From NCBI GenBank assembly GCA_963745075.1, contig CAVUWV010000021.1, forward strand, positions 137,841 through 201,840: 64,000 nucleotides of DNA. The letters run 5' to 3'. Positions 50,307-54,207 of the stretch are shown piece after piece. The translations under genes and the position numbers were made by a program. The stretch is from Candidatus Hydrogenedentota bacterium (GTDB taxonomy: Bacteria > Hydrogenedentota > Hydrogenedentia > Hydrogenedentales > SLHB01). The notes under the pieces were generated by a model. That model had not been told where the DNA came from, did no database searches, and worked only from the letters and a program-made list of their open reading frames with translations. Position 1 is the first letter of the stretch; every line of letters begins with the position of its first letter.

Positions 50307-51308
50307 TCAGAGCCCAATCTGCATTTGAGTCTCCGTCGTTCGCTTGAGGATCTCTTCCGCCAAGTTCTTGAAGTCGGTGTAACACTTCGAAACTGCGGCG
50401 GCATGCGCGCCAATCGCGCCGTCGGCGGGTGTCAGTTTAAATATTGGCTTCCTCGCGTCTTCTGCGAGCGGCATCAGGCTTTGATAATTCTTAATAAAGC
50501 CGATTCGGTTGCGGTCGGATTCTGGGTCCACCTCGGAGGGAACGCTTCGAAGAACATGCGTTTCGTAGATTGCGGGAATCTTCGAAATCCATCGTTGGTA
50601 GGCTTTCACTGGGCGATTTCTTCGTTCGACATGTTGCATGACTACGTAACCCGCGGGAGACATCGTGCCCATGGGCATCGGTATATCGAGATCTAGCGGT
50701 TTCGCATCTAGACGCTGGCGCCAACCATCGCGCCAATTATGAAGCGTTGGGCCCAGATTTCTGAGTCCTTGGAGAGAGAATAGACCAGGGGCCAAAGGCA
50801 TCACAACGAAGTCCGTCGCGATAAGCGACGCCCGATTGATTGCACCCAGGTTCGGTCCTACATCCAGGAGGACGGTGTCCGCGCCGACCGATTTCGCCGC
50901 GTTCTCAATAATTCGGTAGAAGGCAGTCATAACTCGAAATGCCGCTTTGTCGCCGCCAAGGCACCTCGGCCAACTGTCGGAGAGTCGGTCTTCAAACTGG
51001 GATAGGCCCAAATCCCCCGGAAGAAGGTGGATCTCATCGCGTATTTGCTGCAACGGAGCATCGCCTATGTCGCCCAAACCATCGATGATAGGAGCAATAC
51101 AAGCTAAGATGCTCTGATTCTGGCCGCTCTCAGGCCACAATAGTTCGAGACGTTCTTCGTCAAGAAACATAGTAGTCAGATTTGCTTGCGGATCTAGGTC
51201 AACCGCCAACACTCGTTTACCGAGTTCCGCGCACATCCAAGCGACATGATAGACGAGCGTTGTCTTTCCAACACCACCCTTATTATTGAAGAAAGTAACT
51301 GTCTTCAC
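50307..51308 (-). CDS. ParA/Soj-like (AAA_31) ATPase
   Basis: FFNNKGGVGKTT, DLDPQANLT, DVGPNLGAIN; GTG overlaps upstream TGA. Confidence 0.93.
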   Translation of the reverse strand: MKTVTFFNNKGGVGKTTLVYHVAWMCAELGKRVLAVDLDPQANLTTMFLDEERLELLWPESGQNQSILACIAPIIDGLGDIGDAPLQQIRDEIHLLPGDLGLSQFEDRLSDSWPRCLGGDKAAFRVMTAFYRIIENAAKSVGADTVLLDVGPNLGAINRASLIATDFVVMPLAPGLFSLQGLRNLGPTLHNWRDGWRQRLDAKPLDLDIPMPMGTMSPAGYVVMQHVERRNRPVKAYQRWISKIPAIYETHVLRSVPSEVDPESDRNRIGFIKNYQSLMPLAEDARKPIFKLTPADGAIGAHAAAVSKCYTDFKNLAEEILKRTTETQMQIGL

Positions 51309-52498
51309 GTCGTGGCCTCTCGAATCGTGGCCAAAAAGAATGTGGGTTCACTGATATCAAACTCTGCGGAAGGATTGCCATTCTCTCGTAAGAACCGCTG
51401 AGCTCGTGCAATACCGCGACCAAACCGCTCAACGTATCCAAGAGTATTCATCGCTTCTGCGATCTTGGGATTGCGGTAGTCATTTTGGTTCGGAAAAGTT
51501 TCGGGCGTAACTGCGCCGTACAATCCACCGGGGTTTTGAATCTCTATTCGGTCCGTGAACCAATAGAAGCGTGTAGGGGCGTTCGATTCGTAGTCTCGGT
51601 GCATCACCGCGTTCATTAGCAACTCCCTTATCGCCGGAATGGGATACGGCGATCGTCTCTCCTCCTTGAGAGACGAGACTGTCTCCGATTGTATTGGAAA
51701 CAACGTCTTCAGAAAACTATCCATCTGACGAAGAACGGTAATTAAGTCACCTTCGAATCGTCGCTCGTCTGAAGGCTCTGAGTCGAGCGCCTCACCCTCA
51801 TACCGTACGTACTGGATTGCCGCTCCCGGAAACCAGATGAGAGGATCGCGCGCGAACAGGATTGCGCCTGCATTTGTTGCGCAGGCCTCCCGAGACGACC
51901 AGAAGCCAAGGGATGCCATTTGAAGAAGCATGTCACGATCATTCTCCTCAATAATCTCCGGAGCGATTGCGGCATTTCTGTAAGTGAGTTGAAATAGATC
52001 CAGTACGAGTTCGTCCCGGCCACAACCTCGGCAAGGCCGCAAATCAAAAGTGCGGGCGTGATGAGTGCGCTTCTCAGTGAGAATTCGTTCTTCCTGCTCG
52101 TTCGCAATCGCCTTGCGGTTACCGCGACGTATCCAAACACGACCGCGATAGCGAATGGGAGGAATGCCGGAAGGACGAACCTCGACCACGACCACTTCCC
52201 CTTCCGCAAGTTGCATCTTCTGCACCGTCACAGATGGAAGCGGCTGAATCTGTCCGGAGTCCGCATAGCTGGAGAGCTTCTGCAAGAGGTCGTCAGTTAC
52301 CTCAACGCCTTCGATCGCACCGTCGGAATCTCGTGCACCAATTATCAAGTAACCAGGCATGTTGTTCGAGGGCATATCATTGGCGAACGCACAAATGGCT
52401 TCGCAGAATTTGTCCGTATCTCGCGTAGAAACGGTACGTTCAATGCGATCCGACTCTAGATCGTTCAGCAACTCTCTCAACTCTTGCTCATCAATCAT
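51305..52498 (-). CDS. AlbA_2/Schlafen-like domain fused to HATPase_c_4 (RecG C-terminal-like) domain
   Basis: ESDRIERT, ICAFAN, GYLIIG; IRELLMNAVMHRDY, IEIQNPGG, YRNPKIA, VERFGRG. Confidence 0.9.
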   Translation of the reverse strand: MIDEQELRELLNDLESDRIERTVSTRDTDKFCEAICAFANDMPSNNMPGYLIIGARDSDGAIEGVEVTDDLLQKLSSYADSGQIQPLPSVTVQKMQLAEGEVVVVEVRPSGIPPIRYRGRVWIRRGNRKAIANEQEERILTEKRTHHARTFDLRPCRGCGRDELVLDLFQLTYRNAAIAPEIIEENDRDMLLQMASLGFWSSREACATNAGAILFARDPLIWFPGAAIQYVRYEGEALDSEPSDERRFEGDLITVLRQMDSFLKTLFPIQSETVSSLKEERRSPYPIPAIRELLMNAVMHRDYESNAPTRFYWFTDRIEIQNPGGLYGAVTPETFPNQNDYRNPKIAEAMNTLGYVERFGRGIARAQRFLRENGNPSAEFDISEPTFFLATIREATT

Positions 52499-52595
52499 CC
52501 TCTACATCCTATTGCCTAATTCTCAAGTGCCACCACATCGTTCAGTGAAATATATGCCAGGACATCGTTCAGTATTTGCATGATAAGCTGCCAGT

Positions 52596-52710
52596 GCCGG
52601 GTGAAACGGAAGCGGTTCTTGCTGGCGAGCACCCCGCCGAGGGATAGCCCGGTGAGGCTCATCAGACGATGGGTTGGGATGGGGAGCGTACAGGCTCCCC
52701 ATCTCCTTTC
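52596..52710 (+). ncRNA. Candidate structured RNA inside the IS non-coding end
   Basis: Nested stems GCCGGG/CCCGGT, GCGG/CCGC, TGCT/AGCA with GA-rich internal loops, then perfect 10-bp hairpin GATGGGGAGC/GCTCCCCATC plus TCCTTTC; TGATAAGCT extended -10-like element upstream. Confidence 0.45.
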
Positions 52711-52758
52711 TGAACATCGGATGATAGACCTCCCATGCCTCAGAAAACGCTTTTCCGG

Positions 52759-53926
52759 TCAGCGTAGCGGGTATGGACGTTCGTCGATCGCTTCGCCGTC
52801 GAGATACAGCAAGAGCCGCTGCCTGGAAACGTCCACGGTGGCCCACACATATTCGTAGATAGCCTCGGAGGGCATCGAGAACTGTTCCCCGAAGAGGTTG
52901 AAGACGGCGTCGCTGCGGATGAACCGAATGACGTGATAGCATCCGGCCTCGGGCTTGGGCAAAGGGAGTTTGGGTGGCCGTTCCTTGCGGGGGAATCGCA
53001 GCGGTTTGTTGGTAGCCGCCAAGGCCTCCATGGGGGTCTTGCCATTGAGCTTGGTGTATCGATAGCGGAGGTTGTGGCGTTGCTCGAAGGCCAGACTCTC
53101 CCGCTTGAGATCCTCTTCGCATTCCATGATGACCCGCCCCAAGAGCTTCTGTCGCCAATGGTCGTTGAACTTCTCGACCACGCCGTTGCGCCAAGGCTCG
53201 GCCAAGGGGATGAAGCACGGCTCGAATCCCCAGGGGCAAGCACAGTCGGATGAGCTTGCCCATGCCGCGCGGATGCCTGGGACTGCCGTAGAATACGGCC
53301 TCGTTGTCCACTTGTTGGTACTTCGGGAAGCCCAAACGCAGCCAAGTCGCCCACAAGGCATCCACTACGGTGTCTTTGCCGCCCAAAACCGGCTCGACGG
53401 CACAGCGCCCGGTGGCGAGGTCGACGCTGTTCAGGCTGTAGAAACGGATGGGTGTCCGGAGATAGCACGGCCCCACGAAGTCGCTTTGATGCACGAAACC
53501 GGGACGAGGCGCATCCAAGGCCGGATAGCTTTTCCCCTTGGGTTCGTAGCGCCCCGTGCGCCGATGGGTGAGGCCAAGGCGAGCGAGGATGCGTCCGATG
53601 GTCCGAATGCTGGGAAGCGGCTCTATCCCTTCCTCCTCGATTTGCCAGCGAATCGCCTGCGCTCCGCAAAACTCGCCCCGGTTGTACAATTGCAGCCGCA
53701 CATGCTTCACAATTTCCTCGAGTTCGGCGGGCGTTCGCGAGGGCAATCGAATCGGCCTGCGCGAATGCTCCCGATACCATTCCGCTTCGCCTGTTTGGTA
53801 CCGCTCCAGCCATTTGTAGAGCCATCTCCCCGTCCGCCCAAGACACGTGCATATCGTTTGGGCTTTCTCTCCCTTCAAATACCGTTGTACCGCTCGTCTT
53901 CGACGCCATTCTTCTTGCTCGTCCAT
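52759..53926 (-). CDS. DDE (rve) transposase, IS481-like; frameshift near 53230
   Basis: HTH (WLYKWLERY), PSIRTIGRIL, D in QSDF, QVDNE, E in NGVVEKFN; GGAGGAG RBS. Confidence 0.92.
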
Positions 53927-54207
53927 GTGCTCCTCCCTTTCTTGGAGAGAGCACATCGTCGCTCACGAGCCAAACATGATGCTTCGCCACTGAACGATGT
54001 CTTGGCACCAAAACCACTGAACGATGTCCTGGCATCTGTCACCTAATCCCTGGGAGCTTAACCGAGTGAGAAATCTCAGACCCTAACCTCTGAAAATCAT
54101 AACCCATTCATGGATAAAACCGGAACTTTTACATCGGCCCCGACGATCTGTTGTCTTGTACGCATAGGTATGGGTCTATGTTCGGAACATTTCCGAGTCC
54201 GTGGGCT

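Follow-up and report, generated by a model that had tools for sequence, protein, structure and literature searches.

Known RNAs of insertion sequences (IS) are tied either to one enzyme, as are the bridge and omega RNAs, or to the mRNA of their element, as are those of the RNA-OUT type. In the omega RNA (reRNA) of IS200/IS605 elements a 5' loop forms a pseudoknot with the 3' region, and RNA-OUT of IS10 and art200 of IS200 overlap the 5' end of the transposase mRNA. Elements of the IS481 family have a single frame with a helix-turn-helix (HTH) and a DDE domain, terminal inverted repeats, and a 6-bp duplication near NCTAGN. The loops of bridge RNAs are reported to base-pair with target and donor, the target loop being variable (PMC11208160), and a Pout transcript reported for IS481 overlaps the 5' end of the transposase mRNA (PMC6161684).

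The RNA analyzed here was found in a 64,000-nt stretch of DNA (the window) from a Candidatus Hydrogenedentota bacterium, where it lies antisense to the transposase inside a 1521-bp element (Table 1). The element fits the IS481 traits in its single HTH + DDE frame, its inverted end repeats, and its 6-bp duplication. IS481 was the best NCBIfam family for the window transposase at 113.7 bits, which is under the cut-off of 224, and the element is therefore called IS481-like. Two more full copies (1520 bp) and three end fragments are present in the same genome. A 388-aa open transposase frame was found in two other genomic copies, and the frameshift in the window transposase, of one base near 53225, does not occur in the copies on contigs C9 and C23. 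The six element flanks read CCTAAT, ACTAGG, AGTAGG, TCTAAG, AATCAG, and GGTAGA, two of which were confirmed on both sides. The termini are unlike when read inward (TCTCA at 52521-52525, TGACA at 54037-54041), and are the same in all copies in the genome. One end fragment (G000 C15:231235-231286) has 52 bp and no RNA, another (G000 C20:93210-93530) has 321 bp with the RNA, and the third (G000 C28:1-402) is cut by the contig end. The adjoining gene pair (50307-52498, minus strand) consists of a ParA-like ATPase gene and a Schlafen/AlbA_2 + HATPase_c_4 gene; the IS lies 22 nt upstream of the start of the latter and may cut it off from its promoter. At locus L455 the RNA lies upstream of a gene resembling this Schlafen/AlbA_2 + HATPase_c_4 gene.

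Table 1. Features of the IS481-like element and its RNA, in window coordinates.
Feature	Position	Strand	Remarks
IS481-like insertion sequence	52521..54041	.	1521 bp
Target-site duplication, left copy	52515..52520		6 bp, CCTAAT
Target-site duplication, right copy	54042..54047		6 bp
Two 19-nt end repeats	52528-52546 and 52555-52573 (span 52528..52573)		presumed transposase-binding sites
Two matching repeats, other element end	53987..54034		inverted relative to the first pair
Transposase gene	52759..53926	-	HTH + integrase core; frameshifted in the window copy
Extended -10-like box	52581..52589	+	TG-A-TAAGCT (TGATAAGCT); 6 nt before first base of RNA
Conserved RNA, ~153 nt	52596..52748	+	model R1 match 52595-52748, 128 bits
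Domain 1	52596..52653	+	covariation; 12/50 swap
Stem P1	52596-52601/52648-52653		GCCGGG with CCCGGT
9x9 purine-rich internal loop, domain 1	52602-52610/52639-52647		YGAARCGGA / RAGGRAUAN
Apical 4-bp stem and purine tetraloop, domain 1	52620-52631
Domain 2, long irregular stem	52655..52731	+	52655-52663/52723-52731 and 52667-52671/52715-52719
Variable internal hairpin in domain 2	52678..52703	+	perfect 10 bp, 52678-52687/52694-52703, then TCCTTTC
Conserved 3' tail	52735..52748	+	ATGCCT...AAAAC; 52735-52740 probably pairs with loop strand 52640-52645

A sequence-only reading of the window had drawn attention to about 240 bp of non-coding DNA between the transposase stop and the IS end; from the stop at 52759 to the element end at 52521 there are 238 bases, and the stems, loops, 10-bp hairpin with its TCCTTTC, and -10 box that it listed were all found at their places. 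Folding of the single sequence is only modestly beyond chance, with z scores of -2.59 (52581-52758), -2.72 (other strand), and -3.00 (52596-52748); that the feature is more than chance follows from conservation and covariation in homologues.

Homologues were collected with blastn, pattern scans, and covariance models. The window's genome holds a second copy, covering 52590-52730 alone and 75% identical, behind an IS3-like transposase and sense to that gene, the orientation opposite to the window's arrangement. The RNA was detected by blastn in 41 of the 135 genomes of the window's phylum. Pattern scans yielded at least 119 genome stretches and at least 120 metagenome stretches, which among the matches listed were labelled mostly as Acidobacteriota MAGs, with some from other phyla. 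A set of 51 sequences, less than 85% identical, served to build a covariance model (R1). Of the first 100 metagenome loci, for whose choice only the domain-2 pattern had been used, R1 matched 99, and of 100 mixed sources it matched 95; the other five (L058, L063, L067, L070, and L074) are chance loci of the pattern scan without a model match. R1 also matched 49 of the 135 genomes of the window's phylum; in samples from four other phyla, of 151 genomes each, it matched 11, 9, 4, and 2, the centre genome being counted in each. Locus L484 lies inside a reading frame and was rejected as a copy, the count for the G746 phylum being 2 real of 151. A model of domain 1 alone (R2) matched 20 of 151 genomes in a fifth phylum sample, centred on a MAG labelled Gammaproteobacteria, and 11, 2, and 3 of 151 elsewhere, one of the 3 being false. 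Copy numbers reach 51 and 35 per genome; all six model matches in the window's genome are in IS context, and none lies outside.

Outside chromosomes, a plasmid of the cultured Acidisarcina polymorpha carries the RNA. Plasmid searches with RNA queries returned 1, 1, 0, and 2 records; the window's transposase had no match in the plasmid search, and an IS3 carrier transposase found only relatives of about 30% identity there. A blastn search of a phage collection gave no match. Pattern scans of viral contigs gave 0, 0, and 2 matches, and a protein scan of such contigs for the window transposase type gave none. The comparison with Rfam proposed in the sequence-only reading was run and no family matched: in Rfam 15 there were no matches at the gathering threshold in the whole window or in 20, 12, and 20 homologous loci, and otherwise only matches with chance-level E-values; in all, the window and 54 homologous loci were covered. 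Literature searches gave no paper that describes this RNA, as judged by titles and the opening of abstracts, and motif lists in supplements or outside Rfam could hold the family. Taken as a whole, the searches indicate a real and apparently undescribed RNA family that is common to unrelated mobile elements.

Secondary structure was assessed in several alignments. A MAFFT alignment fitted to no structure was made from 40 hand-picked, diverse domain-1 rows; 93.3% of its cells were paired, two-sided changes occurred at 14 of 16 pairs, two-sided cells numbered 124 versus 30.7 in shuffled alignments, and the score was 0.593 versus at most 0.095 for slid controls. The model-fitted metagenome alignment had two-sided changes at 18 of 30 pairs. 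Substitution events were then counted along a tree from which partial hits were left out and which comprised 252 distinct rows. The proposed pairs made up 11 of the top 15 co-substituting column pairs among 6441. The covariation among relatives that the sequence-only reading had suggested looking for was present as 120 co-substitutions versus 31.6 expected, 105 of which keep pairing; Bonferroni correction was passed by only 1 pair, and a stricter tree-based G-test (238 rows) by only 2 of 30 pairs at E<0.05; there is very little variation in the inner pairs of domain 2. The variable internal hairpin was represented by 234 distinct variants with a median folding z of -3.7, and 87% of them fell below -2. 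In distant homologues the sequence of domain 2 is free, and domain 1 and the 3' tail AU(G/A)CCU..AAAA are retained. G-U combinations exceeded A-C in paired positions (507 versus 200), which identifies the plus strand as the RNA strand. The comparative evidence shows a secondary structure conserved on one strand and bears out an IS-borne structured RNA, antisense to the transposase in the window, with outer, inner, and apical stems as they had been drawn.

It is very improbable that the conserved feature is a single-stranded DNA structure or a double-stranded protein-binding site and not an RNA. Comparative data, as pointed out in one report, cannot strictly tell ssDNA from RNA (PMC5737381), but the G-U excess on one strand, the purine tetraloop, the swap between A.G and G.A within domain 1, and a -10 box at transcription-start spacing speak against such a reading.

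Domain 1 is ordered as P1, the 9x9 loop, stem P2, a small internal loop, and the apical stem with its tetraloop; at loci L036, L315, L324, and L325 the 3' side of the apical stem carries insertions of 40-90 nt and the core is intact. Positions 12 and 50 are A.G in 27 of 40 rows and G.A in 11, and the swap requires 6 changes on the tree, at least 2 of them forced by well-supported branches. This pattern partly establishes a direct, non-canonical contact between the two positions, as judged from the alignment. In a kink-turn, a 3-nt bulge is followed by tandem G.A/A.G pairs. The kink-turns that had been suggested for the purine-rich loops were not upheld: a register suited to the A50 variant (11-12 of 40) does not hold for most rows, which have G50, and 4 of 40 rows lack position 46. 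A double T-loop was likewise rejected: only 23 of 40 rows have U at position 8, and the G that 11 of 40 have at position 12 swaps with position 50, which the module's closing U.A pair would forbid. A zipped internal loop of the loop-E kind, judged by the loop E consensus, fits the 12/50 swap and would compete with the pseudoknot considered next.

The loop strand AGGRAU is complementary to the 3' tail except for one mismatch. Two-sided changes in this pairing were seen in L032 and L483, and L482, read by eye, has a fully paired variant. The pairing survives in 17 of 54 non-consensus cells and is lost in 37, a count that takes in decayed and mis-anchored copies, and the tree-based covariation tests (238 and 252 rows) gave no signal for it. 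The 3' tail and the 3' strand of the internal loop probably form a pseudoknot round the variable domain 2. Likenesses to twister, SAM-I, glmS, guanidine-I, and cobalamin RNAs were rejected as short, of other architecture, and without support from Rfam. A sponge for CsrA/RsmA was also considered. The loop contains two conserved ANGGA motifs, and L483 lacks both GGA; of 5 carrier genomes, CsrA was found in 3 and was missing from the copy-rich G141 (35 copies) and G142 (15 copies).

A TAnnnT box occurs 5-8 nt upstream of the RNA in 192 of 243 distinct regions, versus a shuffled mean of 12 and maximum of 21, and agrees with the place that had been proposed for the -10 box in the window. Clean promoters of the form TTGACA-17/18-TAAACY are present in L241 and L251, and in several homologues TTGACA is correctly spaced from the box. 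The window has its box at 52584-52589; its -35 is weak and would fall in the inner end repeat, and a simple promoter scan did not list the candidate promoter. In IS3 hosts the RNA promoter overlaps the last transposase codons. The homologous regions show a -10 box at a fixed distance before the RNA, and the RNA would be transcribed as a separate small RNA.

The length of about 115 nt, with the 10-bp hairpin as end, that had been read from the window was revised. Conserved pairing sequence continues beyond the hairpin and the RNA runs to 52748, about 45 nt past it; the hairpin is a variable internal stem, and the RNA would thus be at least 153 nt long. The hairpin was rejected as an intrinsic terminator on the same ground, and a simple scan of the window found no terminator-like site. 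The earlier suggestion that the -10 region pairs with GCTCATCA also gave way, since in the family GCTCATCA pairs with GATAGACC (62-101 covaries).

In 211 of 243 cases the RNA is followed by a GC-rich hairpin, a figure without control. Together with the constant position of the RNA at the transposase-distal end, the overlap with the mRNA 3' UTR in the window type, and a report describing terminators within ISs (PMC2965389), this would be consistent with a cis-acting insulator in which promoter and stable structure end, block, or protect transcripts that cross the element end, or, in the antisense layout, with convergent transcription over the 3' UTR that damps the transposase mRNA. The two variants, taken jointly, are unlikely: they leave unexplained the near-invariant loops, the same fold in both orientations, and the 0.4-2 kb of cargo between transposase and RNA in about 20 of 124 elements, and the window has no terminator-like site. 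A second doubtful prediction is a new class of catalytic RNA (self-cleaving or other ribozyme). An invariant purine-rich core, a free domain 2, and a probable pseudoknot are features of small mobile-DNA ribozymes, 40-90 nt insertions in P2 are tolerated (L036, L315, L324, and L325), and the RNA is spread across many element types; but no Rfam ribozyme family matches, a dedicated promoter only 6 nt before the RNA means that no 5' leader is available for cleavage, and cis cleavage of the transposase mRNA would be impossible in both orientations.

A total of 259 distinct contexts were classified. The RNA is directly behind an IS3-like transposase, sense, in 98, behind other IS3/IS481-type transposases, sense, in 11, of the window's antisense type in 6, and behind IS110 in 2; 55 were too short. 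Among the 204 contexts whose flanks were long enough, the query set used detected no transposase within 450 nt in 87. Many of these, but not all, are remnants or have the transposase further upstream, and the idea that they are MITEs was rejected for lack of a left-end repeat close upstream of the transposase-less copies. The RNA adjoins the transposase 3' ends of IS3, IS481-like, and IS110 elements in both orientations each, with canonical IS3 elements carrying it antisense at 10 of 14 loci and IS110 carriers both sense and antisense. The suggestion to look in other IS families was thus productive (IS3 and IS110), and the system is not specific to IS481 as had been supposed. Most representative transposases of the carriers share 20-34% identity or cannot be aligned, and a blastp comparison of the window transposase with those of the other carriers gave no match. 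In L392, whose transposase is a 28-31% relative of that in the window, the end repeats come right after the stop and there is no model match. Its presence beside unrelated transposases, in either orientation, and its absence from L392 suggest that the RNA is accessory cargo that was gained several times.

Copies were also found behind AAA_25 genes at three loci (L415, L435, and L442), after a plasmid repL gene (L482, where domain 1 scores 45.6 bits), after a Mom gene on a viral contig (L448), and behind an AAA_22 gene (L333); several of these copies behind replication-type or phage-type genes are then followed by a long G-rich hairpin. In one IS3 lineage, a constant site immediately before the RNA promoter is occupied by differing passenger genes (DinB_2 and others), as at L088, L095, L073, L112, L187, L207, L060, and other loci. 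A CCGGAAGTTGAGA-like motif recurs at the junction, and the site possibly serves gene capture. The RNA at L346:1976-2146 is interrupted by what we take, by eye, to be the 5' end of a group II intron, and at L339:1880-1985 what is presumably a group II intron 3' end, likewise read by eye, lies immediately upstream on the other strand.

Repeated capture by unrelated elements in both orientations, a related transposase (L392) that does without the RNA, and copies without a nearby transposase could also mean that the RNA is a selfish hitch-hiker, a parasitic RNA/DNA module that colonises element ends and is kept for its own sake. This is quite unlikely, as no repeats of its own, duplication, or reverse transcriptase were seen beside the RNA, the IS3-host promoter within the last transposase codons points to long co-evolution, and the window's genome has no copies outside IS context (6 of 6).

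Complementarity was tested against insertion sites, element ends, and transposase mRNA. In two multi-copy carriers the insertion sites show short duplications and no consensus; per position, the information did not exceed 0.47 bits in G141 (19 sites) or 0.73 bits in G140 (16 sites). Matches between the RNA and 35 insertion sites of two IS3-type carriers were 6.3 versus 6.4 nt and 6.4 versus 6.6 nt for shuffled sequence, and loops matched element ends over 3-6 nt versus about 5 nt shuffled (4 elements). Alignment scores of the RNA with its own transposase region were 42.3 for cognate versus 43.0 for non-cognate pairs (38 elements), and with the first 250 nt of 1.3-kb transposase regions 32.9 versus 33.7 (38 elements). 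By these comparisons the RNA is complementary to neither targets, ends, nor its own mRNA, and hence would not be of the guide, bridge, or RNA-OUT type.

The guide role raised in the sequence-only reading, which proposed a test of loop complementarity to target sites, is largely refuted by these results. In favour of an RNA that directs the transposase in target or donor recognition are the two-sided internal loop of a structured RNA in an IS non-coding end, as is described for IS110 bridge RNAs (PMC11208160), and the presence of the RNA in IS110 elements, but the loops are near-invariant, being the same in elements with unrelated ends and enzymes, and match insertion sites no better than shuffles. 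Moreover, the IS110 element of L041/L085 (1585 bp, L041:1630-3214), with the RNA in its right end, also has a left non-coding end of about 290 nt, likely its own putative bridge RNA. A guide- or bridge-like function is accordingly rated as highly improbable.

There is a high probability that the RNA is functional. Its own promoter, its occurrence in either orientation, the tolerated separation by cargo, the fixed core, and the lack of a variable guide suggest that it acts in trans, and since the carrier enzymes differ, its partner is likelier to be a host factor than the transposase. In the mechanism proposed here, to which we give about an even chance, the RNA would be a portable non-coding gene, consisting of a sigma-70-type promoter and an RNA of about 150 nt, that was acquired by unrelated mobile elements and is retained there after the stop codon of the transposase, ahead of the terminal repeats. 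A conserved host protein or complex, and not the transposase, would bind to the surface formed by the near-invariant loop-plus-tail core; by holding or recruiting this host factor in trans, the RNA would favour the spread or persistence of whichever element carries it. A benefit to the carrier is suggested by repeated capture together with conservation. More tentatively, the family may represent a new class of RNA-only accessory genes of mobile DNA in which a pseudoknotted RNA disarms or recruits a conserved host machine and raises the mobility of its carrier. Such a machine could be a transposition repressor, a defence system, or a DNA-repair step needed for transposon circles, and DDE and DEDD transposons, plasmids, and phage-like elements would each have acquired the RNA on their own. 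An RNA common to several enzyme classes and both orientations would have a function independent of the transposase. Since some genomes have 35-51 copies, the host could be affected too, and the partner of the RNA would bring to light a host checkpoint on transposition or a new catalytic RNA.

In comparison with known systems, the RNA resembles the bridge (seek) RNA of IS110/IS1111 in similar size, location in an IS non-coding end, a two-sided internal loop, and IS110 context. It differs in that its loops are near-invariant and match neither target nor donor, and in that bridge RNAs accompany a DEDD recombinase, whereas the window element and most carriers here are DDE and a minority IS110. The omega RNAs (reRNAs) of TnpB and IscB share an RNA scaffold at the downstream end of a transposon and a pseudoknot. 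However, neither TnpB nor IscB was found among the subset of neighbouring frames scanned against Pfam, and the RNA described here ends inside the element or points inward, so that flanking DNA cannot supply a guide. RNA-OUT, art200, and IS481 Pout are likewise small RNAs with their own promoter within an IS, and can lie antisense to the transposase, but the present RNA lies past the stop codon, is often sense, and has no cognate complementarity. The double T-loop module has the core UG..A / AG..A in the published description (PMC3664808), and the loop strands here, YG..A and AG..A, are similar. The orphan RNA motifs of Weinberg and Breaker in Rfam are alike in covariation, promoter, mobile-element context, and unassigned function, and differ in that no Rfam 15 family matches the window or the 54 homologous loci.
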